Shown piece after piece: positions 462-24,070 of a stretch of 32,520 nucleotides of DNA. The stretch is from Burkholderiales bacterium (GTDB lineage Bacteria > Pseudomonadota > Gammaproteobacteria > Burkholderiales > SG8-39), in assembly GCA_005777205.1 (NCBI GenBank), contig SXNB01000259.1, positions 1 to 32,520 of the forward strand, read 5' to 3'. The stretch's first letter is position 1; every line of letters starts with the position of its first letter. The notes under the pieces are model-generated. The model was not told where the DNA came from and did no database searches. It was given only the letters and a program-made list of their open reading frames with translations. Position numbers and translations under genes: made by a program.

Positions 462-785
462 CTCCCTGGAAGGCTACAAGCTTTGGAAATGTACCCGGTG
501 TGGAAAGGTTTTACCCGGAAAGTTCGTTGGCCGGTGTTGACATCCGCCACCAACCAACGAGACGATGCTGCCCAAGGAGCCTAGAAACTCCGAACACAGC
601 GTCCTCCGCCCACGTCAGGGCGGATTGCTATTTGCAGCCCGGTCGATGCCGGGAGGGCGACGGATACAAGACCCGCGAGGGGAAGAAGTCCGCCGACTGT
701 GTTCGGTTTCTAGCCTCCCGGCTTCCTCGTGGGCGCGCCTAGAAACGCTTCTGCGAGGGGTTTCCAACCTCACACAGGAGCGTTC

Positions 786-1625
786 ATGGCCACTCTGCCC
801 GCCTCCCTGGACTTCCAGGGCATCCAGCTCGACGTCGTAGATCATCTGTCCCGCCCGTGGATAAGGGGGTGCCAAATTGGCGCCCCCTTGGGCTATTCGG
901 ACCCCGAGAGCGCAGTAAAGAAACTGTACGCCGCTCACTCTGACGAATTCACCGACCAGATGACGGCCGTTGTGAAGCTCGACACGGCCGGCGGCCGTCA
1001 GGATGTCCGGATCTTCTCGCTGCGCGGCTGCCACATGCTGGCGATGTTCGCGCGCACCGAGCGCGCCAAGGCGTTTCGCGCCTGGGTGCTGGATGTGCTG
1101 GAGAGCCTGGAGCAAGAGACGCCACCGGCCACGTCGGCCGTCGCGGTGCTGCCGCGCGTGGGCGAGGCGGATGCCGTCGTGTCGGCCGGGCGCTGCTTCA
1201 GTGCGTATCTACGCGTCGGCCGAGCCTTCGGCCTTCCCGGCGCGGCGGCGATCCTGCGCGCCAACCGTGCAACGCTGGTGCGTACCGGCGTGAACCTGAT
1301 GCGGGATCTCGACCTGGACGCGGCGCAGATGCAGATCATCGGCCCTGGCGGGAACGCAGCACCGGCAGAAGTGATCCTGGAGCGCGCCGACGACCTCGCC
1401 ACGCGCCAGGACGCGAACGCCTGGTACTTCGGTCGCACAGCTTGGTTGAAGCTCTGCGAGGGCTACTCGGCCGACGCCACGGCGAAACTGCTGCGCGATT
1501 TAGGGCATTTGGTCTCAGATCGGGACCGCCTCACCAAAAAGACGGGGTTCCCAGGCCGGCCCGGCATGTTCGTAGTGCGCAAAGCGAAAACAACAAGCTT
1601 TGGAGATGCACATGGGAACGCATGA
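786..1625 (+). CDS. Phage antirepressor with an N-terminal BRO-N domain and an Ant/KilAC-like C-terminal half
   Basis: The ATG at 786 has AGGAG at 776-780. The N-terminus LDFQGIQLDVV..PWIRGCQIGAPLGY..GGRQDVRIFSLRGCHMLAMFARTERAKAFRAWVLDVLESL follows the BRO-N pattern (F.G..v..v.....PWF.a.dv...LGY.......G......isE.GlY.Li..S....A..F..WV...VLP). The track start at 729 is an upstream GTG without an RBS. Confidence 0.8.
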   Translation: MATLPASLDFQGIQLDVVDHLSRPWIRGCQIGAPLGYSDPESAVKKLYAAHSDEFTDQMTAVVKLDTAGGRQDVRIFSLRGCHMLAMFARTERAKAFRAWVLDVLESLEQETPPATSAVAVLPRVGEADAVVSAGRCFSAYLRVGRAFGLPGAAAILRANRATLVRTGVNLMRDLDLDAAQMQIIGPGGNAAPAEVILERADDLATRQDANAWYFGRTAWLKLCEGYSADATAKLLRDLGHLVSDRDRLTKKTGFPGRPGMFVVRKAKTTSFGDAHGNA

Positions 1626-1821
1626 GAAAAGGGACCGCCGGGAGGGCCTGGCTGGGGAGCTGGCAATCCTGAGCTACAGCCTGGACCACCTGAGCGATCG
1701 GGAACTGGCCCGGCTGCTGACAGCGGATATTTCCCGGCGGGAGAAGCCTTGGGTGCTGCGCGCGGCGAAGCGGATCGTGAAGCGACTCAGCGCGCGTCCT
1801 TCACCGCGCCCCGATTCATGA
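1612..1821 (+). CDS. Hypothetical small protein (69 aa)
   Basis: The ATG at 1612 is 6 nt after TGGAG (1601-1605). Third-position GC is high. It overlaps the end of the antirepressor gene by 14 nt and converges on the 3' end of the giant gene with a 35-nt overlap. Confidence 0.4.
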   Translation: MGTHEKRDRREGLAGELAILSYSLDHLSDRELARLLTADISRREKPWVLRAAKRIVKRLSARPSPRPDS

Positions 1822-4800
1822 CCGTGGCTTCCGCCTCGTCGATCTCGGTACGACGCTGATACAGCGCGTCGCGATCGACCGCGGTCTTGTCCAGGCGCTG
1901 ATTCAGGGCCTCGCCGGAGATTCGCCCAGCGCGGGCCTCGCGGCGCTGCTTGTTCTCGTAGCGCTTGATTTCCGCTTCCTCGGCGGAGAGGCGCTTGCGC
2001 TCGAAATCCGCCCCCTCGTCGAAGCGGATCGGCCGGAGCTTGATGCCGAAGGAAGCAAGCAGCGCATCACGCGTCACGATCGGGTGCTCGCCGCGGTCCA
2101 GGCCGGTGAACTGCCCGAAGCCCAGCTGCTCACTCACCCGATTGGCCGTCTCTGCGACCGGCGTCGCGATCGGCGCCGGCTCGCCGCTGGCTGCGGCCTC
2201 GCGCGCAGCGTTGGCCAGGCCTTCGAGGATCCGGGTCTGGTGATAGCTGCCGGGCATGAGCTGGTTCGAGGGGGTCCAGGCCTGATAGATGTAAGCAGCG
2301 ATCGCCTTCGCCTTCTCGTCCTCGGGCGCACCAGGAGCGTAGATCTCGCGTCCCTTCCAATCCTCATTCATCGCCACGTCGAGAAGCACACGCACCGGGC
2401 TGGATCCGAAAATGTCGCTGCCCCACCAATCCGGCAACCAAGGAAGATCCGCGCGGCGGTTGCCGCTCTCGGCCTGGAACACGTTGCCGAGCGCGTGCGC
2501 GTTGCCCAACGCCAGGCGATGGCCTTCCAGGAAGGGCACATGCACCGCATTGCGCGCGCCCCAGGCAGAGCGGCCGGCGTCCCAGGGCGCAGACAGTTCG
2601 TCCTCGGCCTCGGCGACGTTCCAGTACTGGCCGGGTTCCAGGCCCTCCATCGCCATGCCGGCGTAGTTCACGGCTTCATAGGCCGCTGCCAGCGCCAGGA
2701 CATACTCCGGGTTGCGCGCGACGTTCCGCGCGATCGCCGGGATCGCAAAGTAGGTGTAGCTGATAAAGGGCGAGCCAATGGGCAAATCGCGAACGATCTT
2801 CAGCGCGTCCGGTAGATCCGCGTAGTCGAAGAAGAACTGATTCGCCGCCTGCGCAGCCTCCGTTCGGCTGGAGCCACGGCGGCGCTCGGCCAGGTACACC
2901 GCCATCTTGAACATCTCGTCCTCGAAGCGGTACAGCCGCTGCGCGGCGTCGCCCAGGGGCTTCACGGCGCGAAACGGCGCAGCCAGGCCCCTGATCGCCG
3001 GCTCGGCCGCCGCGCGCGCCAGCGCCGCGCCGGTCTGCCACGGTCCCTTGGCGCCGACAACGGATACCTTGTTCCGGATAAACCACTCCTTGGCCTTCAT
3101 CACCGTGGACAAGACAAACGTCGCGTCCGGGATCTCCGGCTGCTCCAGGAGTTCGCGGGCGAGATCTTCAAGGCCGGTATCGCGATCGTCGCGGCCCACG
3201 ATCGCGCCCACCCGGTTCGCATCGAGCACGCCGTCCTCGGTCGCCTCGCGCACCAGCTGCTCGCCCTCGCCTTGCCACAGCGTCCGGAGCGATCGGCCGA
3301 GATCCGCCGGCGAGTAGCCGGCCATCAGCAACATCTGGCTATTGCTGTGCGTGTTGTTGAAGTGGGTGACCGGGTTGTAAACCGTCTTCCACAGCTTCCA
3401 GCGCGCGAGTACATCGCGATACATCTTGAACGCCGGCGCATCGCCCAGCGGGTGCCGCCCGTAGTTCTTCAGGCCTGCCCACACATCGGGGCGGACGTAC
3501 ATCCCGGCCAGCGCGCCATGCTTGCGCACCGCGCTGCCCTTGCCCGCCTGCGTCGCGGGGACATGCTGCCAGCTCGCCTTCTGCTCGGCCGTCGCCGCTG
3601 CGGGGCTCACTGCCCAGTCACTGCGCTTCGATACGGTATCGAACAGCGTCGCCAACGACAGATCGTGGCTGATCTCGTTCATGCCGCGCACGAAGCGGTA
3701 GCCCGCGTCGCCGATCTCGCCCCAGGCCTCGCGCTCGGCCTTCGTCCAGTCGCGGTGCATCAGGATCCCGTCATCCTTCGTACCGCGCACGCTCCAGCGC
3801 CGGCCGGTAGGCTGGAGGTCACGATCGAAGTCCTCCAGCCGACGAAGCTTGTCCATCGATGCCATGTAGTTAATCGGATGATCGCCGGGCACGATGGGCA
3901 CCTCATCCGCGGCGAACAGGAAACTGCGCAGCTCGCCATTCTGCGAGCCGACGTATTCATGAAACTCCGTCTTGGCCAGCGTCCTGCGTTCCGCGCGCAG
4001 CTGCGCCAGCTCCTCGCCCTCCGCCTTGCCCATGCGCTCGGTCAAATCATTGAACTGATCAACCACATCAGAGACACCGGGGCTCAGGAACTCACGCTGG
4101 AACACGTCGTCGGTGCCGCGTGAGATCGCGTAGGTGCCGGACAGGCTCTGCCGCTTCGCCTCTCGGAACTGGCCATCGCCCTCGAACAGATGCTTGCGGT
4201 AGTACCGGTGCAGATAGCCGCCGGCCTCGATATCCTCCGGGAGCATCTTCAGCGCCTTCATCCGCTCGGCCGCCGTCGTCAGCATCTTCTCAAGCTCGTC
4301 CGCCTGGCGGTGGATCATGTTCAGATCCTTGATGATCCCGCGCCGCTCGATCAGGTCCGCCATCTGCCCGCGCTGCGACGGAGTGAAGTTGTCGCGCAGG
4401 AAGGCGCCCATGTCGGTCACCTCGCGGTTGATGATCTGCTGCATCGCCCGCTGTCGGCGCTTCAGGTCGCGCAGATCCATCGGACCGCGGCCGAACCCCG
4501 GAAGCTTGTCGATCGCAGCGCCGATCTTGTCGAGCGCCACATCCATGATCGCGCCCTTGCCGGAGATCTTCGCCTTGCGCAGCGCGGCCACGCCGCCCGC
4601 GCCCGCGGCGGCGCCGAACGCGATGTCCGCGAACCAGGCCGGAGTGCCCGGCGTCTCGTCCGACAGCGTCGCGCCGCCCACGCCACCCGCGAACGCGCCT
4701 GCGGCGGAGCGCTCAGGATTCAGGCCGATATCGCGTGCGTACTCGGCCAGGGCCTTGCCGAAAGGGTTGGCGTGGAAGGCACTGCCAGCCGGCTGGCGGT

Positions 4801-7330
4801 GAAAACCCGCAGCTCTACGAGAGTCGCCTGCCGTCGTGAAGGAATCGACCAGTTCGCGTCCGGTCGCCTCTCCGAACCGGCGCAGGTTTTCCGCTGCCTC
4901 GTCGGAGTCGGTGCGCGCAAACAAGCCATCGGCGTTGGTTTCGTCGATCGCCCGCAATAGCCGGTTGCTGCCGCCCTCGTCGCCGCCGCGCAGCGCGGCC
5001 ATTTCCTCGGCCGACATTTCAACGAACCGAAGCGGCCGGCGCTGAACATCAACCAACAGGACGCCCTGGCGCCCCCCTCCCATTTCGTTGACGACGCGCT
5101 GCGCATCGTTCGGCCCGTCGATGGACGGGACGGCGCTCGCTGGCCCAACTAGGCGGCGCTCAGTGACCGGGAGCGTCTGCTTACGCGGCGCAGCGGGGGT
5201 CGCCGCGCCAACCACGCCATTGACGTCGGTCCATCTACCGCCAGGCGTGACGACGATGCTCCCCTCAAGTTCTACGCCACTGCCGCGCAGAACATTCTCG
5301 ATCCGGGAGGTAACAGCCCGGTCGGCCGAACTGGCTTCCGTATTGCCGCTCGGATGGTTATGCGCAACCCAGGCCCGCTTGGCCCCCGGTGTATTCGCCA
5401 CGATTCCACCAAACAGACCCGGATCGGTTGGCGCCGAAGCGATCGAGCCAGTATGGATGCGCGCCACGCGCAGCACGTTGCCCTCACCATCCGCGATCAC
5501 AGCAAGCAACGATTCCTGCGCGTCCTTGCGCAGAGGGGCCACCACATGCGCCACATCGGCCATCGACTCGACCTTGCTCTTGCCGGTGGGAAGCCGCGCC
5601 GTCGTCACATGCCTGACCTTGGGTCCCAGCCCCCGCGCAAGCCTCTCGCGCGCGTTCAGGAGCGCGAGAGGGTCAGCGCCCGGAATCATGATATCGACGC
5701 GATCCAGGCCCTCCGTCGCAGCGCCGGCGCGATCGGAAACGCCGCCATCCGGCTCGCGCGACGCCGGCGGCTCCGGTATCGTCTTGCCGTCAGTCCCCGC
5801 TCCCTCCGCAGTTCGCATACCAGAGGGCTCCGGAGCATAGGCGCCACTGGGGTTACCCCCCTTGGCGCCACCGGGGGCTGGCCGATACAAAGGGCTGTCG
5901 CCGCCTGCGCCAGGCTCGCGCAGCCCTGTCAGCCCGTCAGCTTCTCCGCGGTATCCACCGGCGGCGGCGCCTTCCGCTCGCGCTCCCGCTTCAGGTAGTC
6001 CTGCGCCAGCTGGCGCACCCGCTGGCGCCGGCTCGGCGCTTGTGGCTTCTCGTTCACGGATCAGGGCCTCCAGGGCGTTGAAATAGTCGTCGTCGATCTC
6101 GTGGCGCACGGCCAGCGTCTCGATCTCGTCCGGGGTCAGAAGCTCTTCCGCGCGCAGCGACAGACCGAACTCCCGAGGCGTCGGCTGGATATCGTCGGCG
6201 AGCACGGCGTCCAACAGTTCCGAGTCCAGCTCGCGGCGCGCAAGGCCGGCGATCTCGTCGCGCGGCGCCGTCGGCGCGGCCGGCGCAATCTCCTCCCCCG
6301 GCAAACGCTCCAGGACAGACACATTCGCCTCGCGGAAACTTCTGACGCCTTCCGCCGCGTTGGCGGGCGCGGCGCTGCTCGGCGCGGGTGCTGGCTGCGG
6401 CGCCGGCTCGGGCGCGTCAATCATCTCGTTCAGGCGCGCGATGCCCTGCTCCGGAGGCAGGCCCGCGTCCTCAGCCGCGCGGGCGGCTTCCTCGTGCGCC
6501 TGGTTGATCGCGGCGGACCGCTGCTCGGGCGACAGCGTGCGCCAACTGCTGCGCAGGCCGCTGGCGATCAGACGAGCCGCCGTGTCCAGCGCAGGCACCG
6601 CCACGGCGCCCACACCGGCCGCCAGCGCCACGGCGCCGGGGTCATTCACCCCGCCGCGAGCGCCTTGATGCGCCGCTTCTTCGAGTGCCCCGGTTCCGGC
6701 GCCTGACGCAGCAAGGACGCCCAGCCTGGCGGGAATTGAAGCCGCGCCGAGCCCTGGCGTAAGAGACACCAACAGCGACAATGGGTCTGTCATCGCACGG
6801 GCCATGCGGCCACCTAACACGGGCAGCAGGCCGGATTCCTGGGCTTCCGGAACGCGAGCGTCACGCATAGCTAGTTCGTTCTGGCGCACCGCTAAACGTG
6901 CCTCGCTCTCAGGAGTTCCCTGGCTCTTCAACTGAAGCATGCGGAACCATGCTGGAAGGTTTTGAGACAAGCTGGTGGACTGCTGGAATGCCTGACCAAA
7001 AGCCTGTAGCCCTTGCGGCGCCGGCTCGGCGCCCACCGTCTCCGGCCCGCGCAACGGGATCTGCGGCGCCGCCACCTTCGGATCGAGCACCTGGAGAGCA
7101 GGCGCCATCGAGCGCAGCGGCTCGGGGATCGGGTTAGTGCTTTGCACCTGGACGGCGTTCGGGTCCAGCGCCAGCGGTGCGGGAGTTGCAGCGGGCGCAG
7201 GCGCCACCGCCTTGAACTCATCCCACCCCGACGCCGCCGACTCGACAGACTTGAACTCGTCCCAATCTTCGGAGGTGGAGACGGCTCGGGCCGGCTCGAC
7301 GATGCGGAACTCGCTCCAGGGATCGGCCAT
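1787..7330 (-). CDS. Giant virion/ejection-type polyvalent protein (1847 aa) with a central RadC-like JAB/JAMM domain
   Basis: This is an uninterrupted 5.5-kb ORF and the last gene of the virion operon. Its ATG at 7330 shares one base with the upstream stop (TGATG). The N-terminal third is rich in Ala/Pro/Gly, with Gly/Ala hydrophobic segments. The JAB motif AWVAHNHPSGNTEASSAD lies at aa 653-670. A C-terminal region of about 900 aa is unassigned and ends in a coiled coil. Confidence 0.9.
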   Translation of the reverse strand: MADPWSEFRIVEPARAVSTSEDWDEFKSVESAASGWDEFKAVAPAPAATPAPLALDPNAVQVQSTNPIPEPLRSMAPALQVLDPKVAAPQIPLRGPETVGAEPAPQGLQAFGQAFQQSTSLSQNLPAWFRMLQLKSQGTPESEARLAVRQNELAMRDARVPEAQESGLLPVLGGRMARAMTDPLSLLVSLTPGLGAASIPARLGVLAASGAGTGALEEAAHQGARGGVNDPGAVALAAGVGAVAVPALDTAARLIASGLRSSWRTLSPEQRSAAINQAHEEAARAAEDAGLPPEQGIARLNEMIDAPEPAPQPAPAPSSAAPANAAEGVRSFREANVSVLERLPGEEIAPAAPTAPRDEIAGLARRELDSELLDAVLADDIQPTPREFGLSLRAEELLTPDEIETLAVRHEIDDDYFNALEALIREREATSAEPAPAGAPAGAGLPEAGARAEGAAAGGYRGEADGLTGLREPGAGGDSPLYRPAPGGAKGGNPSGAYAPEPSGMRTAEGAGTDGKTIPEPPASREPDGGVSDRAGAATEGLDRVDIMIPGADPLALLNARERLARGLGPKVRHVTTARLPTGKSKVESMADVAHVVAPLRKDAQESLLAVIADGEGNVLRVARIHTGSIASAPTDPGLFGGIVANTPGAKRAWVAHNHPSGNTEASSADRAVTSRIENVLRGSGVELEGSIVVTPGGRWTDVNGVVGAATPAAPRKQTLPVTERRLVGPASAVPSIDGPNDAQRVVNEMGGGRQGVLLVDVQRRPLRFVEMSAEEMAALRGGDEGGSNRLLRAIDETNADGLFARTDSDEAAENLRRFGEATGRELVDSFTTAGDSRRAAGFHRQPAGSAFHANPFGKALAEYARDIGLNPERSAAGAFAGGVGGATLSDETPGTPAWFADIAFGAAAGAGGVAALRKAKISGKGAIMDVALDKIGAAIDKLPGFGRGPMDLRDLKRRQRAMQQIINREVTDMGAFLRDNFTPSQRGQMADLIERRGIIKDLNMIHRQADELEKMLTTAAERMKALKMLPEDIEAGGYLHRYYRKHLFEGDGQFREAKRQSLSGTYAISRGTDDVFQREFLSPGVSDVVDQFNDLTERMGKAEGEELAQLRAERRTLAKTEFHEYVGSQNGELRSFLFAADEVPIVPGDHPINYMASMDKLRRLEDFDRDLQPTGRRWSVRGTKDDGILMHRDWTKAEREAWGEIGDAGYRFVRGMNEISHDLSLATLFDTVSKRSDWAVSPAAATAEQKASWQHVPATQAGKGSAVRKHGALAGMYVRPDVWAGLKNYGRHPLGDAPAFKMYRDVLARWKLWKTVYNPVTHFNNTHSNSQMLLMAGYSPADLGRSLRTLWQGEGEQLVREATEDGVLDANRVGAIVGRDDRDTGLEDLARELLEQPEIPDATFVLSTVMKAKEWFIRNKVSVVGAKGPWQTGAALARAAAEPAIRGLAAPFRAVKPLGDAAQRLYRFEDEMFKMAVYLAERRRGSSRTEAAQAANQFFFDYADLPDALKIVRDLPIGSPFISYTYFAIPAIARNVARNPEYVLALAAAYEAVNYAGMAMEGLEPGQYWNVAEAEDELSAPWDAGRSAWGARNAVHVPFLEGHRLALGNAHALGNVFQAESGNRRADLPWLPDWWGSDIFGSSPVRVLLDVAMNEDWKGREIYAPGAPEDEKAKAIAAYIYQAWTPSNQLMPGSYHQTRILEGLANAAREAAASGEPAPIATPVAETANRVSEQLGFGQFTGLDRGEHPIVTRDALLASFGIKLRPIRFDEGADFERKRLSAEEAEIKRYENKQRREARAGRISGEALNQRLDKTAVDRDALYQRRTEIDEAEATVMNRGAVKDAR
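5231..5608 (-). other. RadC-like JAB (JAMM metalloprotease-fold) domain inside the giant protein, about aa 575-700
   Basis: Codons at 5345-5362 read CAT AAC CAT CCG AGC GGC (HNHPSG), followed by NTEASSAD. This gives the H-x-H-x7-S-x2-D metal-binding signature typical of the RadC/DUF2466 family. The upstream part SLLAVIADGEGNVLRVARIHTGSIASAPTDPGLF matches the RadC core pattern. Confidence 0.75.
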
Positions 7331-8460
7331 CAGCGCACGCGCAGGTTGCCGGCCGGGTCGATGAAGTACGTTCCCGGCTGTAGGGCGCGCGCCTCCTCCA
7401 CCGTTTTCACCCTGCGCGCCGACTTGCGCAGCGCTTCCAGGCGCGCCTGCTCCTCGCTGGCGTTGATCTGCTCGGCCTCGGCGGTCACGTCATCGGCCGT
7501 CGGCGCCACCGGCTCCGGAGCCCCGCCACGGTTGGCGATGTTGACGTAGTAGCCGATGCGCTCATCCACGTCCTTCTTCAGCGCCGCCGGATCATTCCGG
7601 TACTTCGGCCGGTTGGACTCCATCAGTTCTTGCTCGACTTCGCGCACCAGCGCCGGCGTCACGTTCGACTTTCGCGACTGCTCCAGCACTTCCTTCTCGC
7701 TGATCCCGCGCACGTCCGCCTCGTACTGCGTGTTGCGCTCGAACGCGCTCGGACCACTCGCGGCGTCCGGCTTCGCCTCCAGCGGCGTGCCGTCCGGCCC
7801 CAACACCGGGCGATACTGAATCGCCCCGTTCGAGCCGATGTACGAATCGAAGTAGCCCAGCTTTCCGTCCGGTCGCAACCCCGTGATCCGCGGCCGAGGT
7901 GCAGCGGCGCCGGCCTGGCGGGCCTGTACGCCGCGCAGCTTCGCGGTAGCCCTTGCCGCCTCGGCATCCGCATCGTTTTCTTTCGCGCCAGCCAGGCGCT
8001 CGGTCGCCAGCGCCTGGACCGCGCTCGACTCACCCAGGATCGGATTGGTTTCGCCTGAAAAACGTTTGTAGGCCACGCCGCCGGACATGCCCACCGGATC
8101 CACGTCCCGCCCACCCAGCGCCATCACCCGCTCCGCCGGCGTGGCGAGCTGCGCCGTCTCGCGCTGGATCGCGCGCTCCTTCAAGAAGTCCGTCAGCGCG
8201 CCCACCACATGCCGCGGCTGGTCGGAGCTGTTGAACAGGTTCTTGTAGAGATCCAGATCGTCGGCCGGCCCGAGCTGCGGCGCGGGCAGCGCGCTGATCC
8301 CTTCGGGGCTGCGAAACACCGCCGAGTTGCCCTGCTGCGAGACGCCAGGGGCATCCGGCAGCGCGGATACCCCCTGCCGCTCCAGCAGCAGCTTGGCGGC
8401 CTCGAACGCACTGCGCCGGCGCTGCGCCCCGGGATTGATGAAGTCGAAGTAGCCGGCCAT
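7330..8460 (-). CDS. Hypothetical virion protein (376 aa), a candidate internal/ejection protein
   Basis: The ATG at 8460 follows the TAA of the upstream gene after a 2-nt gap. Its stop overlaps the giant gene's start. I recognised no motif. Confidence 0.75.
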   Translation of the reverse strand: MAGYFDFINPGAQRRRSAFEAAKLLLERQGVSALPDAPGVSQQGNSAVFRSPEGISALPAPQLGPADDLDLYKNLFNSSDQPRHVVGALTDFLKERAIQRETAQLATPAERVMALGGRDVDPVGMSGGVAYKRFSGETNPILGESSAVQALATERLAGAKENDADAEAARATAKLRGVQARQAGAAAPRPRITGLRPDGKLGYFDSYIGSNGAIQYRPVLGPDGTPLEAKPDAASGPSAFERNTQYEADVRGISEKEVLEQSRKSNVTPALVREVEQELMESNRPKYRNDPAALKKDVDERIGYYVNIANRGGAPEPVAPTADDVTAEAEQINASEEQARLEALRKSARRVKTVEEARALQPGTYFIDPAGNLRVR

Positions 8461-8462
8461 GT

Positions 8463-9005
8463 TTAGCCCATCGTGGCGGCGGAGCCACTGTTGCCGATGC
8501 CGACGCTGAAGCCGCGCCCGCTGCTGCTGCTGCTGCTGCCCTTGCCGCCGAAGTAGATGTCAGCCAAGGCCATGAGGTCTTCCAGGTCGCGGCGCGCATT
8601 CGCCGACTGCGAGTCGTACAGCTTGGCGTTCTCGCCAGCGGCGATCTGCGCCAGGATCGCTTCCGTCTCCTTGCTGATCGCGTCGATCTGTGCGGCCGCG
8701 TCCTGGTCGGCGAGCTGATTCGCGCGCAGCTGCTGGAAAGTCGTCAGGCTCGGATCCGCGCCGATGCGCTCGCCGGCCTGCTGGCGGGTGCGCTCTACTG
8801 CGGCCGTTCGCGTGGCCCCCGCACCGCCGATGCTCCGCAGCTGCTCGGGCGTCAGCTGCGCATAGCTGACATCCGCGGTTCCGGTCTTCGCCACCTCGCC
8901 GAGCCGTCCACCGCTGAGGCGGTCGATCTCACTGAAATAGCCGGTCACCTGTTGGGGCGTCAGCGGCTTGCTGCTGCTGCTGCTCTTGCTCTTTCCGACT
9001 GACAT
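8463..9005 (-). CDS. Hypothetical virion protein (180 aa) with Ser runs and Gly-Lys motifs at both ends
   Basis: The ATG at 9005 has GGAG/GAGGG 8-12 nt upstream. The N-terminus is MSVGKSKSSSSSK and the C-terminus is FGGKGSSSSSSGRG. The central part is a Gln/Ala-rich helix. Confidence 0.8.
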   Translation of the reverse strand: MSVGKSKSSSSSKPLTPQQVTGYFSEIDRLSGGRLGEVAKTGTADVSYAQLTPEQLRSIGGAGATRTAAVERTRQQAGERIGADPSLTTFQQLRANQLADQDAAAQIDAISKETEAILAQIAAGENAKLYDSQSANARRDLEDLMALADIYFGGKGSSSSSSGRGFSVGIGNSGSAATMG

Positions 9006-12423: not shown

Positions 12424-13169
12424 TCGAAGATCATCCAGATATCGCCATCCTCGCCATCGCCCGGGTCGGGCACCACATTGGTCACCGTCAGCTTTCCGTA
12501 CACCTGGCCACCATTGGCGCAGAAGGAAGGCGCATTAACCTGCCCGGTGAAGTCATCCCCGGCCTGGTTCGCTGGCGTGTAACCCAAAGCCTCCAAGACG
12601 CGCTCCTCGGTCACCACGCTGTTCGTAACCAGCGCGCCATCGATCAGGTTGATGACCACGCCGTCCAGCGCGCTGGTCAGGCCGGCGCCCTCATCGTCCA
12701 GCGTAAGGTTCACCGTCGTGACCGTGCCGTTCCAGCTGCGGCTGGCCACCTCGCCATACACGAAGGCGCCCGCCAGGCTGGCGCGCACGCGCGTGCCGAC
12801 CAGAAGCGTCGTCGTGATGTCCGCGGGCACCGTGAAGGTGTCCTCGTCCACATAGGCCACCGAGGGCGCGATCGCCTGCGTCTGCGGCGAATTGAAACGC
12901 TGGTTCGCCCACGTCAACAAACGATTGAGCAGGCCCACCAGTGTCTTGCGCCCCTGCGCGTCCTCGGGGAGATCCTCGTCGGCGAAATAGGTCAGCCAGA
13001 AGCTGATCGTCGTGGGGTCCGCGGCAAGGCGATCCGCCGTGTCCTCGCCGGGCATCAGGACGCTGGCGAGCAGATCCTGGAAATCCTGGTTCTGCGGCTG
13101 CTGTCCGATCGCGAACGGCGAATCCACATTGCCCGCCAGCTCCTGCCGCGTCCTGATCTCGCCCGTCAC
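12420..13169 (-). CDS. Tail fibre-like protein (249 aa)
   Basis: The GTG at 13169 forms a GTGA overlap with the upstream stop. The C-terminal part LGYTPANQAGDDFTGQVNAPSF...GDGEDGDIWMIFE resembles common phage tail-fibre repeat motifs. Confidence 0.75.
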   Translation of the reverse strand: MTGEIRTRQELAGNVDSPFAIGQQPQNQDFQDLLASVLMPGEDTADRLAADPTTISFWLTYFADEDLPEDAQGRKTLVGLLNRLLTWANQRFNSPQTQAIAPSVAYVDEDTFTVPADITTTLLVGTRVRASLAGAFVYGEVASRSWNGTVTTVNLTLDDEGAGLTSALDGVVINLIDGALVTNSVVTEERVLEALGYTPANQAGDDFTGQVNAPSFCANGGQVYGKLTVTNVVPDPGDGEDGDIWMIFE

Positions 13170-14008
13170 GGAAGCACCTCGAAATAGTTTTGCTGGCCGA
13201 ACGGCGCCGTCCCGTCGTCAACCAAGAGGTAATCGCCGGTGGAAAGGATCATCTCGAAGCCCACGCCCTCGATGCTCGCGGGCACCAGCACCTCCACCGC
13301 CGTGGCCGTGGAGGAATTGGCGAGCCCCTGGACGTCGCCGTCCAGTTCGTCGCGCCAACGATGAATCACCGGCACCTCGTGCGCCTCCGTCTTCGCCGCG
13401 CGCAGCTGCTCGCGATACCGGGCCTCGAACGTCGCGGCGTCCTGCGACAGCTGCTCGCGGTCGAAATGGCGGCCATACATGCCGATCACGCCATTGACGA
13501 TCAGCGGCTCCCACTCATGCGGAACGATCGCAATGTGAATCGGCCGCTGGTAGAGCACACGGAACGAAATCGGCTGGCTCGGCGCCGGCCACAGGTGCAC
13601 GCGCTTGCCAGCCTCCAATGCGTAATGCGTGCACTCGCGCGCGGCGTTCGGCCGGTTGCAGGCCGCGGCCTGGGCGCGCAGGTCCGTGATGTGCGACAGC
13701 GTCGTAAGGCGCAGGCGCCGCGGCGCATAGATCGACACCACGCGATCCAGATGGCCCTTCAGGTCGATGATGTCCTGCCCGGCCTGGATCGTTGCCGACT
13801 TCAGGTTGTCGAGGAACCACCAGCGGTGGCCCATCGCGGAAATGCGGAGCGTCTGGTCGGTCCAGCGCTCCACCTTGCGGAAGAATTCTGCGTGCTGCGG
13901 GTTGTCGCGGTTGAGCACCCCGACATGAAAGATCAGATCCGAAATATCCTGCGCCACGCGATCGATTCGCGTGTGATCGGCGACAGGGAACGGAAGCGGC
14001 AAGGTCAT
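13166..14008 (-). CDS. Hypothetical head-tail joining or adaptor candidate (280 aa)
   Basis: It is the first gene after the capsid gene hairpin. The ATG at 14008 has GAGG about 10 nt upstream. The functional call is by position only. Confidence 0.7.
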   Translation of the reverse strand: MTLPLPFPVADHTRIDRVAQDISDLIFHVGVLNRDNPQHAEFFRKVERWTDQTLRISAMGHRWWFLDNLKSATIQAGQDIIDLKGHLDRVVSIYAPRRLRLTTLSHITDLRAQAAACNRPNAARECTHYALEAGKRVHLWPAPSQPISFRVLYQRPIHIAIVPHEWEPLIVNGVIGMYGRHFDREQLSQDAATFEARYREQLRAAKTEAHEVPVIHRWRDELDGDVQGLANSSTATAVEVLVPASIEGVGFEMILSTGDYLLVDDGTAPFGQQNYFEVLP

Positions 14009-14101: not shown

Positions 14102-15100
14102 TCAGGTGAAGACGATCTTGCCGTTCATGTTGCGTCGCTTGGTGTAGATCGACGCATAGACCAGGCAGTTGCGGGCCTTGGCTTCCTTGCCCTTGACCTT
14201 CTCCCAGGCGGTCATCGTGAAGTTCGTCCCCTTGTGGATGCGGATCGGGGTGTTCTTCGTGTTGATCGCCCAGCCTTCCTTTGCCGCCAGCGTGGCATCG
14301 TAGATGTAGGTCTTGCCCTTGTTGTCCTTGAAGCTCAGGCCCGAGCCGCCGGTCTTGGAACCGGAATCAACCAAGGTCACCTGGACCTTGCCCTCCCAGT
14401 AATCCAGCTGCTTGTCGAACAGATCCTCGCCACAGACCATCAGATCCGGTTCCTGGCCCTGGTAGGCGCACTTGCGGAACAGTGAGCGCAGGCCCAGGCG
14501 CATTTCCGTCGCCAGCGAATACTGGCCGCCGCCGGTCTTGACGCCGGACTGCGGCGCCCAGTAGCCGAAGCCAGCTGCCGCCGGATCGATGCCGCCGCAA
14601 GCCAGCGTCGGGTTCATGATGCGACCCAGGCCGGTGAACTGGCGGCCGTCCGCAAGCTGGCTGCCCATGATCCGCGTGTTGAAGAAATTGTTCATCGACT
14701 CCTTCAGCTGCGTCGCCTTGGTTTCCACCAGGTCCACCAGCTGCTCAGGGCCGGAGTTCTTCACCAGCTCCTCGCGGGAGTACATCTGCGTACCGATGAT
14801 GTGGCCGTAGGGGAATTTCGCCTCTTCGAGCCCATCCTGCGGCGTCATATCGACGTCGTCGTAATGGGTGAAGTCCTTGACCGTACTGTTCTCCTTGACC
14901 AGCAGCTTGACGGGCACATACAGGCCGATCGAGTCGCGCAGCTCGATGCGATCGTTCTCCTCGTAGTACTTCCACAGCGGGTGCTCGATGGTGAGGTGCG
15001 AGACGACTTCCTTGTCCATCTCGTCCATCGTCGCGATGAACAGGTCATCGACGTCCTCGACGCCGGCGAAAAGCGGTACACCAGATTGGCTAAGCGACAT
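14102..15100 (-). CDS. Major capsid protein (332 aa, presumed HK97 fold)
   Basis: The ATG at 15100 has GGAG 8 nt upstream. It sits immediately downstream of the scaffold-like gene and is followed by a hairpin. Size and composition are typical of podovirus-type coat proteins of about 330-345 aa. The call rests on position and composition, not on a diagnostic motif. Confidence 0.75.
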   Translation of the reverse strand: MSLSQSGVPLFAGVEDVDDLFIATMDEMDKEVVSHLTIEHPLWKYYEENDRIELRDSIGLYVPVKLLVKENSTVKDFTHYDDVDMTPQDGLEEAKFPYGHIIGTQMYSREELVKNSGPEQLVDLVETKATQLKESMNNFFNTRIMGSQLADGRQFTGLGRIMNPTLACGGIDPAAAGFGYWAPQSGVKTGGGQYSLATEMRLGLRSLFRKCAYQGQEPDLMVCGEDLFDKQLDYWEGKVQVTLVDSGSKTGGSGLSFKDNKGKTYIYDATLAAKEGWAINTKNTPIRIHKGTNFTMTAWEKVKGKEAKARNCLVYASIYTKRRNMNGKIVFT

Positions 15101-17255: not shown

Positions 17256-17718
17256 TTTCAGCCTTCCACTGCTGAAACCCGCGATACCGATTCAGAAATT
17301 CGGTGCAGGTCGCAAGATCTCTTCCGACGGCCTCGGCGAAGGCTCGGTCTTCATCCGCTCGCGCTCCATCCGCATCGTCTCCAGCTCCGGAATCGGCCGC
17401 ATGAAGATCTGCGGCGCCGGCGGGCACTGGTGGATGATCTGCGGGCTCGCGCAGGCAGACAGAACGAACACGATGCACAACGCGCTCGACAACTGGGCGG
17501 TCCTGGTTCGATTGATCGACATAAGCGGTAACGGCCTCCTGGCCGGAGAGTGCGGATTCAGCCTGGCTTTCAAGCGCGAGCAGGCGCAGCTGCTGCCGCG
17601 CATCGGCGATGTCCTGCTGCGCAGCCTCCAGCCGCTCGGTCTGGATCCACACCGCCGCGGCGAGCCCGAAGGCCAGCGCCAGGCGCCAGTGCGCGAGCAA
17701 CCACAGCGGCGCGGTCAC
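17245..17718 (-). CDS. i-spanin (Rz-like, 157 aa)
   Basis: The GTG at 17718 forms a GTGA overlap with the upstream stop. It has an N-terminal TM helix (LWLLAHWRLALAFGLAAAVWI) followed by a coiled coil (ERLEAAQQDIADARQQLRLLALE). It contains an embedded lipoprotein ORF in another frame. Confidence 0.8.
   Translation of the reverse strand: MTAPLWLLAHWRLALAFGLAAAVWIQTERLEAAQQDIADARQQLRLLALESQAESALSGQEAVTAYVDQSNQDRPVVERVVHRVRSVCLREPADHPPVPAGAADLHAADSGAGDDADGARADEDRAFAEAVGRDLATCTEFLNRYRGFQQWKAENGG
17292..17522 (-). CDS. o-spanin (Rz1-like lipoprotein, 76 aa), fully embedded in the Rz gene in another frame
   Basis: The ATG at 17522 gives MSINRTRTAQLSSALCIVFVLSAC, with the lipobox L-S-A-C. The mature part is short and Pro-rich (CASPQIIHQCPPAPQIFMRPIPE...RPSEEILRPAPNF). 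Confidence 0.8.
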   Translation of the reverse strand: MSINRTRTAQLSSALCIVFVLSACASPQIIHQCPPAPQIFMRPIPELETMRMERERMKTEPSPRPSEEILRPAPNF

Positions 17719-18236
17719 AGAAAGCTCTCCGGAAAGTCACCAGTGCGGAGAACACGGGCCAGCGTCAGCGTGCGCTTGATCGCCACCGGATCATTGCCGG
17801 TCAGCTCGGCCCACTGGTGCAGGAACAGGATGTCATGCGCCGATTCGTAGTCCCTCGCCTCCATCGCGCGCCAGAAGTCGCGCTGCGCCAGGAGCACATC
17901 GGGGCCGAACAACATCGCGACATGCGCGATCACCACACCGCGGCCGACCGTCAGGTCCGACAGCGTCCACAGCCTCGGCCAGAGGATACGCATCACATCG
18001 CGCGCCTCCTCGGTCAGCTGCAGCTCGGCCACCGCCTTGGAGACGCCCACGCGGCTGATCTTCCAGAGCCATCCGGCCAGCCAGTCCTGCCCCTTCTGGA
18101 AAGGCTTCTCGTGGAACCGTTCGAGCTTCATGACTGACTTCACCAGGGCAGCCTCCGTCGCCTTGAACAATCGCTCCGCCCGCGCCGACACATCGCCGTC
18201 TTCGCGAACCTGGTAAGTCCGGCCCTCATCGTTCAT
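17715..18236 (-). CDS. Hypothetical 173-aa protein, possibly a degenerate GH24/T4-lysozyme-like protein
   Basis: The ATG is at 18236. Its motifs are collinear with T4 lysozyme: NDEG..Y....D (Glu-x8-Asp), AERLF..TEAALVKSV, and the C-terminal RTGDF. It lacks the TIGxGH beta-hairpin. See the findings. Confidence 0.6.
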   Translation of the reverse strand: MNDEGRTYQVREDGDVSARAERLFKATEAALVKSVMKLERFHEKPFQKGQDWLAGWLWKISRVGVSKAVAELQLTEEARDVMRILWPRLWTLSDLTVGRGVVIAHVAMLFGPDVLLAQRDFWRAMEARDYESAHDILFLHQWAELTGNDPVAIKRTLTLARVLRTGDFPESFL

Positions 18237-18453
18237 TCCTGCACCCGGAATCGCGGCGCTGCATGCTGTTCTTGAGATCCTGGATCTCGCGTTCCTGCGC
18301 GCGCGCCAAGGCCGCCGAGGCGGTCGCCAGCTCGCGTTCCATCCGGTTCGTGTAGCCCGCCACGATCGAGATCGCCACGGTCACCAGGAACGACACCACC
18401 GCCCAAGGCTGCGCCTGGATCGACCAGAACCGGTCCGCCGATCGCCGGCTCAT
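18226..18453 (-). CDS. Small single-TM protein (75 aa) in the lysis cassette. Candidate antiholin or lysis regulator.
   Basis: The ATG at 18453 forms an ATGA overlap with the upstream stop. The TM helix is WAVVSFLVTVAISIVAGY, followed by a charged helical tail. The track ORF extending to 18642 is an upstream extension that overlaps the holin gene. Confidence 0.6.
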   Translation of the reverse strand: MSRRSADRFWSIQAQPWAVVSFLVTVAISIVAGYTNRMERELATASAALARAQEREIQDLKNSMQRRDSGCRNER

Positions 18454-18677
18454 CGCAGATCCGCCTGCTTCCACAGCCGCAACAACGGGATCAGGACGGC
18501 CACCAACAGCTTGACCACCTGGTAGTGCGGGGACTCGACAAGCATGGAGGCCATCGGGATCTGCTCCACATGCGAGAAAATCAGATCCGCCATTTCGAGC
18601 ACAACCAGGAGCGCCGCCGCGCGCACCGAAAGAAACTTCCACCAGCTGCGCCAGTCCTCGATCAGCTTGTCGCTCAT
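18450..18677 (-). CDS. Holin or pinholin candidate (75 aa, two TM helices)
   Basis: The ATG at 18677 forms an ATGA overlap with the endolysin stop. The TM segments are FLSVRAAALLVVLEMADLIF and VVKLLVAVLIPLLRLW, followed by a charged C-terminus. Confidence 0.65.
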   Translation of the reverse strand: MSDKLIEDWRSWWKFLSVRAAALLVVLEMADLIFSHVEQIPMASMLVESPHYQVVKLLVAVLIPLLRLWKQADLR

Positions 18678-19207
18678 GCTGCCTCCCCGATCTTCACGCG
18701 CCCCTCGCAATAGGCCCGCTCTTCGTTGCGTCGTCGCACCAGCCCCGGAAGCTTCACCCCGCGCGCCGTCATCCACCCCTCGGTCAGCGCACGACAGCCC
18801 CCGGCGTAGTCGCCGCGGTTGAACCGCTGCCGGATCTGCGGCTGGCGCCCGTTCTTGAGCCAACAGAGCCCGTCCTTCACTCCCGCCCGCCCCGGCCCGA
18901 CGTTGAACGCGAACGACACCAGCGCGATGCGCTGGCCCTCGGTCAGAGGAACCGTGATGCAGCGATCGACGATCTCATTGGCCGCGTAAATGTCCTCCGC
19001 GAGCAGCTCCCGGCATTCCTCCAGCGTCTTGACCTGCCCGAGCTGGACGCCAGCGGTAGCGCCATAGCAGATCGTCGGGATCCCGACCGGATCGAGGTAA
19101 GCCGTCTTGCGCAGGCCTTCGTAGCCGCCGATGACGGCGACGGCGGTCGCCAAAATGGCAGCAAGCCGGCGGACGGACCTATTTTCCTGATGTTGCTTCC
19201 CGGTCAT
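18674..19207 (-). CDS. SAR endolysin (GH24 lysozyme with an N-terminal signal-anchor-release domain, 177 aa)
   Basis: The ATG is at 19207. A weakly hydrophobic Ala/Gly-rich N-terminal helix (RRLAAILATAVAVIGG) is directly followed by YEGLRKTAYLDPVGIPTICYG. This carries the catalytic spacing Glu30-x8-Asp39-x5-Thr45 typical of R21/P1 Lyz-type enzymes. Confidence 0.85.
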   Translation of the reverse strand: MTGKQHQENRSVRRLAAILATAVAVIGGYEGLRKTAYLDPVGIPTICYGATAGVQLGQVKTLEECRELLAEDIYAANEIVDRCITVPLTEGQRIALVSFAFNVGPGRAGVKDGLCWLKNGRQPQIRQRFNRGDYAGGCRALTEGWMTARGVKLPGLVRRRNEERAYCEGRVKIGEAA

Positions 19208-21881: not shown

Positions 21882-22181
21882 CTAGTACGCGCCGATCACA
21901 ACGGCGCCGGCGCTCTCAGCGATGCGCAGGCGGAAGGTTCCCGGCGTGTCCAGCGAGATCGCAGGATCCGAAACATTCAACTTGGCGAGGTTGACCCACA
22001 ACGCGTCGGCGGCCTGCGCCGGATCGTCCACCTCGTCAGTCAGGATTTCGAGATCCACTTCTTCCTCGCCGGCGAGGCCGCGCACGAACAGCGTCTGGAC
22101 CTCGCCCGGCCCGACGAAAAACGCGGCGGACAATGGCGCTGCGACAGCGCCCTCGGATCGAATCAGGATGCTGGGCTTCAT
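21882..22181 (-). CDS. Hypothetical protein (99 aa) coupled to the portal gene
   Basis: The ATG at 22181 forms an ATGA overlap with the portal stop. Confidence 0.65.
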   Translation of the reverse strand: MKPSILIRSEGAVAAPLSAAFFVGPGEVQTLFVRGLAGEEEVDLEILTDEVDDPAQAADALWVNLAKLNVSDPAISLDTPGTFRLRIAESAGAVVIGAY

Positions 22182-24070
22182 GGTCGGCCTCCTCGGCTCT
22201 CGGTAATCGCATTGATGGCCGAGCGAAGCGCCTGGCCACTGTTGAAGTTCTGTGGGCTCGCCGACGGAAGCGCGGCGTTCGGCGCTGCGGCGCCCGGGAG
22301 CCCAGGCATCGCGCCGGGCGTCATTCCTGGCAGCTGCGCACCTGCTCTCGCGGCGCGCATCAGCGCTTCCATGCCCTTCACATCGAACATGGTCAGGCTG
22401 TTCCGCAGCAGGGCTAGATCGAACTGCGGCCCGAACTTTTGGAACAGTTGCCCGAACATGTCGGACAGGAATTTCTGGCGCACCGGCGTCATCCCGCTCT
22501 CGCCGGCCATCGCCTGGATCTCGAAGCGGCCCTGGAAGGCCTCGCGGCCATAGGTGAGCATCTGCGGCGCACCGATCTCGTCAGGCACGACGATGGACTG
22601 CCCACCCGGCGCGAACTCGCGCAGGAGGCAGCGGTGCGTTTCGGCCACCTGGCCGATGAAGCGGAGTTTCAGATTGCGCTTTCGCGTGATCCGCGCGGAG
22701 CCGATCGTGAAGATGCGATCGCTCTCGGTCGCGGTTTCCGCGCCGCCCTGCGCCACGGCGGAGACGCCGGTGTTCTGGTCTACATCGTTCACCGCCTGCG
22801 CGATCTGCGTGTAGAGATCGCGCGGAACAGCGGTGGACTGGATCGTCTTGATGAGGTCATCCCATTTCGCGTCTTCAGGAACCTTGACCCCCACGGCCGC
22901 GCCGTCGGGCGATTTCATCGCGGCGTCCATTTCCTCCTGGGAAATGGATCCCATCCGGAACAGGACCAGCAGCTTCTGCTCGCGAGTCAGGTTGGCGGCG
23001 CGGGTTCGCAGCTTGTCGGCCTCCAGTCCGAGTACGCGGATGCTTTCGACCTGGCTGACGCCGAACGGCTGATCGTTGGCGGGGATCGGGATCAGGAAAC
23101 TGAAGGGCGACTTGTCCGGATGATCGAAAGTGACGGGCCACTGCTGGCGGCGCAGCTCGTACAGCTTCGACTGGACCGACTTCTCACCGCGGCGGCGACG
23201 GCCGGCCTGCTGGGTGAACTCGCTGCTCTCGATGAAATCGATCAGCTCACGCCGCCGCTTGTCCCAAATTGTGATATGGCGGACCGAGTCTTCTTCGAGC
23301 GACTCATCGGTCTGCGGATCTTCGCCGTACAGCGACTTCCTACGGATCGCCGACGGCTTGATGCCCTCCGGCACATCGAAGCCCCTTGCGCGCAGCGCGT
23401 CCAGCGTCGTGATCGCTTCGCGTCCGTGCCAGCTCGCGCTCCACATCGAGAACGCAGAGGCGTCGAACAGGAACTCCAGCGGCGACACGTAATCGTCCTG
23501 GACCGCCTCATAGATCACCTGGCGCCGCGTCGGCCGCGCGTAGAGGTCCTGCCCGGACTCGTCGGTCGCTGGAACGAAGCTGCCGTCCGGCTGCTCGACC
23601 ATCTGCAGTGCGGGCTCGCCGGGGACCTCGGCTTCTTCGGTGCGCCACCAGGTGTAGGTGATGCCGTGCCCGATCATGACCGCATCACGCGTCACCGCAT
23701 CGCACACGTCGCCCTGCCCCATGATGCCGCCGCCATACAGGCTCGAACGGATCGCGTACTCCACCAGGGCCTCGCGATGCGCATCGTCGCTTCCCATCGC
23801 GCGGGTGAAATCCTGCGCCGTGGCCTTGATGCTTACCTCGGGGATATCGAGCATCGCGAACGTCTGCTCCAGGTTCCGATGCACCAGGCCGATCTTGACC
23901 TGGTCGCCGGAGGGCAGCGTGACGTTCTGATCCTCGTTCTTGTCCCGGAGCGCGCGATAGGCGTGCGTGTGAAGTCGCGCATACAGCTGCCACTCGTTCT
24001 CGCAACGCTCGCGCCGCGTCCGCGCGTTGTTGATCTTGAGCGCCCAGGCGTCCGTGTCGGTTTCGCTCAT
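22178..24070 (-). CDS. Portal protein (630 aa)
   Basis: The ATG at 24070 has GGAG 7 nt upstream. It lies immediately downstream of the large terminase. Size and acidic composition fit a portal. The call is positional. Confidence 0.75.
   Translation of the reverse strand: MSETDTDAWALKINNARTRRERCENEWQLYARLHTHAYRALRDKNEDQNVTLPSGDQVKIGLVHRNLEQTFAMLDIPEVSIKATAQDFTRAMGSDDAHREALVEYAIRSSLYGGGIMGQGDVCDAVTRDAVMIGHGITYTWWRTEEAEVPGEPALQMVEQPDGSFVPATDESGQDLYARPTRRQVIYEAVQDDYVSPLEFLFDASAFSMWSASWHGREAITTLDALRARGFDVPEGIKPSAIRRKSLYGEDPQTDESLEEDSVRHITIWDKRRRELIDFIESSEFTQQAGRRRRGEKSVQSKLYELRRQQWPVTFDHPDKSPFSFLIPIPANDQPFGVSQVESIRVLGLEADKLRTRAANLTREQKLLVLFRMGSISQEEMDAAMKSPDGAAVGVKVPEDAKWDDLIKTIQSTAVPRDLYTQIAQAVNDVDQNTGVSAVAQGGAETATESDRIFTIGSARITRKRNLKLRFIGQVAETHRCLLREFAPGGQSIVVPDEIGAPQMLTYGREAFQGRFEIQAMAGESGMTPVRQKFLSDMFGQLFQKFGPQFDLALLRNSLTMFDVKGMEALMRAARAGAQLPGMTPGAMPGLPGAAAPNAALPSASPQNFNSGQALRSAINAITESRGGRP

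Follow-up and report, generated by a model that had tools for sequence, protein, structure and literature searches.

Phage-type polyvalent proteins are predicted to be packaged in the head and injected, and RadC is listed among their domains (Iyer, Burroughs, Anand, de Souza & Aravind 2017, J Bacteriol; PMC5512222). The giant protein gp47 of the Shiga toxin (Stx) phage phi24B, with 2811 amino acids (aa) and the domains LPD5, LPD1, LPD38 and MuF-C, is abundant in virion proteomics and has been proposed to be an ejection protein (2026 preprint, Stx phage phi24B). Here, we analyse a gene for an 1847-aa protein on contig SXNB01000259.1 of a Burkholderiales bacterium (assembly GCA_005777205.1). The whole stretch that was analysed, 32,520 nucleotides (nt) long, is called the window, and the gene, the last of a prophage virion module, is called the giant gene. 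Its product carries an intact RadC/JAB domain followed by a dead duplicate of that domain (pseudo-RadC), and the pair has been replaced as a block between near-identical prophages. A first reading of the DNA letters alone, referred to as the original prediction, had seen in it an injected polyvalent RadC/JAB effector. This is still the best reading, to which we assign a probability of about 0.7: the product would be a phage-type polyvalent protein that is packaged and injected, as we infer from the position of the gene and its translational coupling, from homologues with lysin or classic phage polyvalent domains, from cassette swapping and from the finding of phi24B gp47 in virions.

The 2017 framework already provides for polyvalent virion proteins that contain RadC, and the present one is real but of a known kind. 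What goes beyond the original prediction is the tandem of RadC and pseudo-RadC, the exchange of this tandem as a cassette, and a large C-terminal module that is unmodelled and structurally orphan.

Comparison to Described Giant Proteins

Like the members of the class described by Iyer et al., this is a giant multidomain protein encoded with virion genes of the portal/terminase type, and its relatives carry ART-PolyVal, ddrB-ParB, InPase, LPD1/3/5/37, MuF-C, PBECR3, Zeta toxin and lysozyme-type domains. Unlike that class, it has one recognisable enzyme domain, and its pseudo-RadC and C-terminal module are without a Pfam model. We assign the giant protein to the phage polyvalent-protein class. 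The summary of Iyer et al. (2017; PMC5512222) places RadC only in polyvalent proteins of the conjugative-element type, with prophages mentioned elsewhere in that paper. RadC occurs in 40 of 168 sampled giants of the present family and is thus a frequent component of phage-type polyvalent proteins, which is a modest correction of that summary.

The Stx-phage giants (phi24B gp47 and Escherichia phage PA2 gp48; 2793-2811 aa) are likewise giant proteins of short-tailed temperate phages, and PA2 gp48 is the last gene before attR, the same terminal position as that of the giant gene. Their LPD5-LPD1 region is common to one member of the present family, P0006, at 35-37% identity. They differ from the giant protein in lacking RadC. 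The virion RNA polymerase (vRNAP) of coliphage N4, gp50, follows the same plan: a domain that binds lipid at the N-terminus, catalysis in the middle and a very large domain at the C-terminus. It is packaged and ejected; the giant protein, unlike gp50, has no RNA polymerase domain, no HExxH C1 subdomain and no sequence match to it. In the T7 set gp14-gp15-gp16, the largest protein has an N-terminal lytic transglycosylase that is absent here. Some homologues of the giant protein do have a lysin domain of this sort, either SLT (P0007; 4 of 22 close relatives) or glucosaminidase (P0004).

An Intact RadC Domain

Midway along the giant protein, Pfam RadC (PF04002) matches aa 589-696 with E 2.4e-13 and 50.5 bits, compared with a curated cutoff of 22.1. 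PHROG 10276, labelled 'DNA repair protein', matches the same stretch, and the NCBIfam RadC models cover only the domain, with scores under the cutoffs set for whole proteins. For the whole giant protein, the RadC structure 2QLC is the sole sequence match in the Protein Data Bank (PDB) below E 0.1. The full JAMM set is present as E606, H657, H659, S667 and D670. In a 60-sequence alignment, the two histidines and the aspartate are invariant, and the glutamate and serine are at least 90% conserved. The set E-H-H-S/T-D is kept in 35 of the 36 sequences with an aligned first domain, down to about 25% identity; the one exception, P0035, has no RadC match at all. The active site is under strong constraint.

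The match to PF04002 and the complete predicted metal site bear out the original prediction of a catalytically intact RadC/JAB domain in the middle of the protein. The HNHPSG motif is encoded, as it had read, at nt 5345-5362 (aa 657-662). The spacing that it gave for the rest of the signature, HNHPSG-x6-S-x2-D, has to be corrected to x4-S-x2-D after HNHPSG, which is the canonical HxH-x7-S-x2-D. A profile and structure search of aa 560-720 had been suggested at that time as a check, and it returns a significant Pfam RadC match, conserved metal-site residues and the fold of 2QLC. The AlphaFold2 model of aa 560-850, built from the 60-sequence alignment, has a predicted local distance difference test (pLDDT) score of 92.7 and a predicted template modelling (pTM) score of 0.88. 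With its first domain as the query, the best Foldseek match in the PDB is 2QLC (E 1.2e-6, template modelling (TM) score 0.80 normalised to the target, root-mean-square deviation 2.9 A); JAMM deubiquitinases and cytidine deaminases rank below it, with E>0.01.

Ordinary RadC proteins (PF04002; 2QLC; E. coli YicR/YeeS/YkfG/YfjY) have the same fold and the same E...HxH-x7-S-x2-D site as the domain described here. They are about 225 aa long and begin with a helix-hairpin-helix region (PF20582), whereas the present domain has no such region, forms part of a giant protein and is joined to a degenerate copy of itself. To date, no RadC has an established biochemical activity (2025 review), and our searches of the literature turned up neither such an activity nor an anti-defence role.

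A Degenerate RadC Duplicate and the Tandem

The AlphaFold2 model of aa 560-850 contains two domains with the same beta-alpha-beta-beta-alpha-beta-alpha-beta order, and the second of them, aa 713-848, is a degenerate, catalytically dead RadC duplicate. A first comparison by hhalign, of the first domain with the second within the family only, was weak (14% probability). Against a profile of ordinary RadC, hhalign aligns the second domain over 104 columns with 93.7% probability and E 1.9e-7; the alignment has a gap in place of the HNHPSG...S..D loop, and the glutamate is missing. A hidden Markov model (HMM) of the second domain, used in plain HMMER, matches the catalytic domain of ordinary RadC proteins of about 220 aa, for example P0194 at E 7e-8.

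The two domains go together. Pseudo-RadC follows RadC in 38 of the 40 RadC-carrying giants, a count that includes three proteins not used to build the model, and it does so 8-39 residues on, wherever the pair sits in the array of domains. In the close subfamily, the pair is directly upstream of the C-terminal module, and the distance is constant (145-175 aa); distant members have RadC 400-2000 aa away from that module. Standalone tandems also exist, as proteins of 319-452 aa on short metagenomic contigs (P0169-P0172). Pseudo-RadC without an active RadC in front occurs in P0035, which is full length, and in P0017, which appears to be truncated at the N-terminus. Since P0035 is full length, the dead domain can persist alone.

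We found no description of the tandem, either by Iyer et al. (2017) or in Pfam. Its nearest parallel is the MPN+/MPN- pairs (Rpn11-Rpn8, CSN5-CSN6, BRCC36-Abraxas), in which an active JAB is likewise paired with a JAB that has lost its metal site. Those pairs are separate subunits of eukaryotic deubiquitinase complexes, while the present one is a tandem fusion within the RadC clade, so that the resemblance is one of architecture and not of membership.

Exchange of the RadC Cassette between Near-Identical Prophages

The closest relative of the giant protein, P0002, is encoded at a locus (L002) that is collinear with the window at 88-94% DNA identity over most of the approximately 17 kb compared. 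The 137-, 166- and 180-aa proteins encoded upstream are 99-100% identical between the two, and the giant proteins are 90-100% identical outside the swapped segments. The RadC + pseudo-RadC pair has been replaced as a block between the window and L002 (Table 1). The 3' breakpoint of this cassette coincides with the start of the C-terminal module, and both alleles, that of the window and that of P0002, keep E-H-H-S-D. A second variable segment, cassette 1, is closer to the N-terminus, where it overlaps the start of a Gly/Ala-rich hydrophobic element.

Such a pattern would be expected of an exchangeable effector under diversifying pressure and not of a structural element. The fast turnover of the cassette between near-identical prophages suggests a role in host-phage conflict.

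The original prediction had proposed that the JAB domain could be an early counter-defence activity aimed at ubiquitin-like conjugates. In this proposal, the cassette would be an injected (iso)peptidase stripping ubiquitin-like or cyclase conjugates of the cyclic-oligonucleotide-based antiphage signalling system (CBASS; Cap2/Cap3) or of Bil- or Bub-type defence. It is in keeping with the complete JAMM catalytic set, with a cassette that evolves like a conflict gene and with an active and inactive JAB pair that recalls the MPN+/MPN- deubiquitinase modules. The fold is also related to an Rpn11 homologue, PfJAMM1 and CSN5 (E 0.04-0.2), and to BubCD (9ea4) at E 5e-4 but with a TM score of 0.23. 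However, Pfam gives RadC only, with no match to the Cap3-type Prok-JAB family (PF14464) at E<=0.1, and the TM score of 0.80 (target-normalised) to RadC 2QLC compares with 0.33-0.53 to the JAMM deubiquitinases. The RadC clade is without the groove that holds the ubiquitin tail and probably acts on nucleic acids or nucleotides (Iyer et al. 2017; PMC5512222). Moreover, no E1, E2, ubiquitin-like (Ubl), CD-NTase or CBASS genes were seen among the genes of the window. We therefore find no support for an anti-CBASS or anti-Bil deconjugase and consider it improbable. For the RadC cassette of an injected polyvalent protein, as we read it, a nucleic acid or protein adduct would be the more likely substrate.

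The C-Terminal Module and the Modular Family

BLAST comparison to 30 homologues reveals two sharp joints in the giant protein, at aa ~568 and ~846. The part from aa ~846 to 1847 is common to every family member among these homologues and that from aa ~568 to 845 to a subset; the first ~560 aa are common in full only to P0002, apart from the Gly/Ala element mentioned above. When a profile of aa 846-1847 was searched exhaustively against 1.84 billion representative proteins, it matched 7521 clusters at E<=1e-3, of which 2177 reach E<=1e-30, and in nearly all of the 150 listed matches the module lies at the C-terminus of a protein of 1500-4700 aa. The C-terminal ~900 aa, in which no motif had been recognised originally, are in fact within the most conserved and most widespread part of the giant protein.

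The domains upstream of the module vary widely and belong to the classic repertoire of phage polyvalent proteins. Among 22 close relatives, they are RadC (9), SLT (4), GGDEF (3), methyltransferase (2), ddrB-ParB (1) and LPD3 (1). Among 31 distant relatives, they are ART-PolyVal (12), LPD37 (3), MuF-C (3), LPD1 (2) and RadC (2), with LPD5, InPase, PBECR3, LPD3, Zeta toxin and others found once each. Several partners can occur together, as in P0004 (glucosaminidase + ddrB-ParB + RadC), P0006 (LPD5 + LPD1 + RadC) and P0007 (SLT + InPase). The GGDEF domain of three close-subfamily giants (among P0032-P0052) is a diguanylate cyclase domain, and a cyclic-di-GMP synthase delivered by a capsid would be unusual; the methyltransferase of two close-subfamily giants is a small one (MTS).

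The module has no matching model in Pfam, PHROGs or NCBIfam, and its sequence profile has zero matches among PDB sequences. A confident AlphaFold2 model from a 29-sequence alignment (pLDDT 77.5, pTM 0.72) is mostly helical. In the BFVD, this model matches C-terminal chunks of viral proteins named as 'large polyvalent protein associated domain-containing' with E 1e-31 to 1e-29 and TM scores of 0.54-0.68; the names of these matches mention Zeta toxin, ART-PolyVal, helicase, LT_GEWL, RelA/SpoT or methylase. There is also a weak match to a C-terminal chunk of N4-like virion RNA polymerases (E ~2e-4, TM score 0.2-0.28), and the PDB entries of N4 gp50 (9pnt/9pnr) reach only E ~3.

The polar residues R1193, D1194, E1199, E1205, D1223, H1323, N1325, N1326, N1330, E1470 and D1471 are invariant family-wide, which suggests, from conservation, that a module otherwise taken to be structural has a site for binding or catalysis.

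A relationship of the module to the LPD38-type region of Stx gp47/PA2 gp48 was looked for without success. Searches by hmmsearch with two profiles, comparing the module to the C-terminal region of PA2 gp48, were not significant and gave only two short collinear motif matches. Pfam LPD38 has no match in the giant protein at E<=10 and none in 31 distant carriers of the module.

The N-Terminal Region

The region that precedes the RadC domain is of a different character. Its Ala/Pro/Gly content is 31-50% per 100 aa across the N-terminal ~560 aa, in agreement with the earlier description of an Ala/Pro/Gly-rich N-terminal third. Two Gly/Ala stretches had also been placed there. GVGAVAVPAL does belong to this region (aa 239), within the element at aa ~172-310, which is the sole N-terminal part that recurs in several family members and may interact with the membrane. 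GAFAGGVGGA, however, is at aa 878, where the C-terminal module begins.

Proposed Packaging and Injection of the Giant Protein

The giant gene is translationally coupled to the 376-aa gene upstream of it, its ATG sharing nt 7330 with the TGA stop of that gene (an ATGA overlap). The Bro-N/anti-repressor (Ant)-like gene converges on it from the other side and its relatives keep the same terminal position, which confirms the earlier description of the last and largest gene of a virion operon. It had further been likened, together with the 180-aa and 376-aa genes, to the small-medium-giant core protein sets of short-tailed phages. A giant at the end of a podophage-like virion module is indeed what is found, but the analogy to the T7 core set is weak because the 180-aa protein looks fibre- or needle-like and the C-terminal module has no PDB match by either model or profile. 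An ejection role is supported by those homologues with an SLT or glucosaminidase domain at their start, a feature of ejection proteins.

We propose that the giant polypeptide is made late with the virion proteins, is packaged in the head of a short-tailed temperate phage with a portal and adaptor of the SU10 type, and is expelled into the cell with the DNA. The Ala/Pro/Gly region with its Gly/Ala helices would serve as a flexible, membrane-contacting leader. The exchangeable effector cassette would be an active Zn-type RadC/JAB hydrolase fused to its dead duplicate, and the dead copy is probably a scaffold or substrate-binding partner, as MPN- is for MPN+. The C-terminal module of ~1000 aa may act in incorporation into the capsid, as part of the ejection conduit, or both. 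The RadC cassette most likely would act early in infection on a host or phage macromolecule, presumably not a ubiquitin-like conjugate.

Several points weigh against this reading. Packaging and injection of the giant protein and its close relatives are deductions. There is only one recognisable catalytic domain, so the term polyvalent fits the family more than it does this member. The link to phi24B and PA2 runs through the LPD5-LPD1 region of another family member and not through the C-terminal module. That module has no similarity to solved ejection proteins, Foldseek against the PDB giving nothing significant (best E ~1). Finally, a search of the giant protein for the HExxH motif of a zincin processing peptidase found none.

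The last of these points bears on whether RadC itself might be the processing enzyme. Iyer et al. (2017; PMC5512222) count a processing peptidase among the essentials of a polyvalent protein, and RadC might take the place of the zincin MPTase, which has this task in many other polyvalent proteins, as a cis-acting maturation peptidase, cutting the giant or neighbouring virion proteins in head assembly or after ejection. The characterised JAB domains are all metallopeptidases (2025 review), and in the close subfamily the RadC + pseudo-RadC pair stands at a domain joint at its fixed distance from the C-terminal module. However, many family members lack both RadC and MPTase, and RadC is far removed from the C-terminal module in the distant members. 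Nor would a housekeeping processing enzyme be expected to swap as a divergent cassette between near-identical phages. We think this role unlikely.

It could also be asked whether the giant protein belongs to the virion at all. The gene is at the prophage edge beside the Bro/Ant-like gene, and a third class of polyvalent proteins, domesticated by hosts, has been noted (Iyer et al. 2017; PMC5512222). It might thus be non-virion prophage cargo or a lysogenic-conversion protein beside the attachment site, for example a defence or exclusion factor. Against this, the gene is on the same strand as the series of tail genes and is translationally coupled to it, the terminal position is kept across diverged phages, and homologues carry N-terminal cell-wall lysins. 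In addition, the comparable last-gene giant of the Stx phages, whose position is seen in PA2, is found in phi24B virions. We consider the cargo explanation very improbable and return to the injected polyvalent protein.

A wider proposal can be made, which we offer tentatively and consider rather doubtful as a whole. The C-terminal module might be a universal, undescribed 'delivery chassis' in thousands of capsid-packaged effectors, perhaps distantly related to C2 of the N4 vRNAP. It would carry interchangeable cassettes, one of the most frequent being an obligate RadC + pseudo-RadC heterodimer in one chain, a counter-defence enzyme undergoing rapid allelic replacement. If true, this would provide the first tractable biological assay for the long-orphan RadC family, which is among the most widespread domains of bacteria and mobile elements that lack a known activity. 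The two natural alleles together with point mutants would make a concrete system for finding the RadC substrate. The C-terminal module would repay annotation as well as structural work on how giant proteins are packed into phage heads and expelled from them.

Genomic Setting

The coordinates of the features are collected in Table 1. The G+C content of the window is 60-69% over its 32.5 kb, and nearly all long genes are on the minus strand.

Table 1. Features of the window, ordered by position (nt) on the forward strand.
Feature	Position (nt)	Strand	Remarks
Bro-N/Ant-like gene	729-1625	+	Converges on giant gene
Giant gene, 1847 aa	1787-7330	-	ATG start; last gene of virion module
C-terminal module, aa 846-1847	1787-4795	-	Starts with FHANPF and Gly-rich helices (aa ~870-920)
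RadC + pseudo-RadC cassette, aa ~528-851	4778-5747	-	No DNA alignment to L002; 42-60% aa identity
Pseudo-RadC, aa 713-848	4787-5194	-	RadC beta-alpha topology without metal loop and Glu
Active RadC-like JAB domain, aa 589-696	5243-5566	-	Pfam RadC PF04002
Metal-binding loop H657-N-H659-P-S-G-N-T-E-A-S667-S-A-D670	5321-5362	-	
E606, JAMM general-base glutamate	5513-5515	-	Glu in 36/36 aligned sequences having a residue at this column
N-terminal region, aa 1-527	5750-7330	-	Ala/Pro/Gly-rich; poor conservation beyond closest relative
Gly/Ala-rich hydrophobic helices, aa ~172-310	6401-6817	-	GVGAVAVPAL at aa 239; Kyte-Doolittle score 1.69
Variable cassette 1, aa ~100-214	6689-7031	-	No DNA alignment to L002; 34-44% aa identity to P0002, >90% in flanks
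Gene series 249, 154, 510, 158, 137, 166, 180, 376 aa	7330-13169	-	
376-aa gene	7330-8460	-	Directly upstream of giant gene; no family match (Pfam, PHROG)
180-aa gene	8463-9005	-	Homologous to part of a 658-aa L001 protein with a weak Peptidase_S74 match
SU10-type adaptor	13166-14008	-	
Major capsid protein	14102-15100	-	
Lysozyme	18674-19207	-	
885-aa protein, GDSL/SGNH-like C-terminus	19214-21871	-	Pfam 27.8 bits, below cutoff; phrog_14987 E 6.5e-47
SU10-type portal	22178-24070	-	
693-aa protein, probably large terminase	24108-26189	-	Directly upstream of portal; matches only a PHROG of unknown function
AEP-TOTE/DUF927 primase-helicase, 1068 aa	27550-30756	-	AEP-TOTE E 7e-43; DUF927 E 1.3e-59

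A contig scan with the giant protein alone found nothing; a second scan found five loci. Loci of relatives are numbered L001 to L005 here. Relatives occur in Endozoicomonas, Sedimenticola, Immundisolibacter and metagenome-assembled genomes of unclassified Gammaproteobacteria. The series of 510-, 158-, 137-, 166- and 180-aa genes and then the giant gene is kept in diverged relatives from Endozoicomonas and other gammaproteobacterial assemblies. In L002, the block is followed by genes for a DeaD helicase and an acyl-CoA dehydrogenase; it is therefore a prophage. The contig of the giant protein itself measures 401 kb. None of 50,697 phage records matched nt 8000-32520 in a near-identity DNA search. 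When the giant protein was compared to the same records by tblastn, the only match was one of 160 aa at 28% identity to prophage-like records of Helicobacter pullorum.

A gene stands directly upstream of the giant gene likewise in L002, L003 and L004, and a weak relative of the 376-aa protein is encoded upstream in L005. The 376-aa protein has no informative relatives; from its location, it is a candidate internal or ejection protein. The 180-aa protein, judging from its homology to the L001 protein, may belong to a needle or fibre and not to the core. The 885-aa protein, encoded between the portal and lysozyme genes, probably forms a tail fibre or spike and acts as an esterase. The 693-aa protein, which has no Pfam or NCBIfam match but is encoded where a large terminase would be expected, may be a divergent large terminase (TerL).

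No convincing terminator was found downstream of the giant gene, and no tRNA was found in the window. The lysis genes (17715-19207, minus strand), consisting of lysozyme and small downstream open reading frames, are atypically placed: they lie inside the virion block, with the portal/fibre genes on one side and the scaffold/capsid genes on the other. Near the left end of the window, beside the Bro/Ant-like gene, the segment 172-511 has no counterpart in the otherwise collinear L002 and could be a site of variable cargo close to the end of the prophage.

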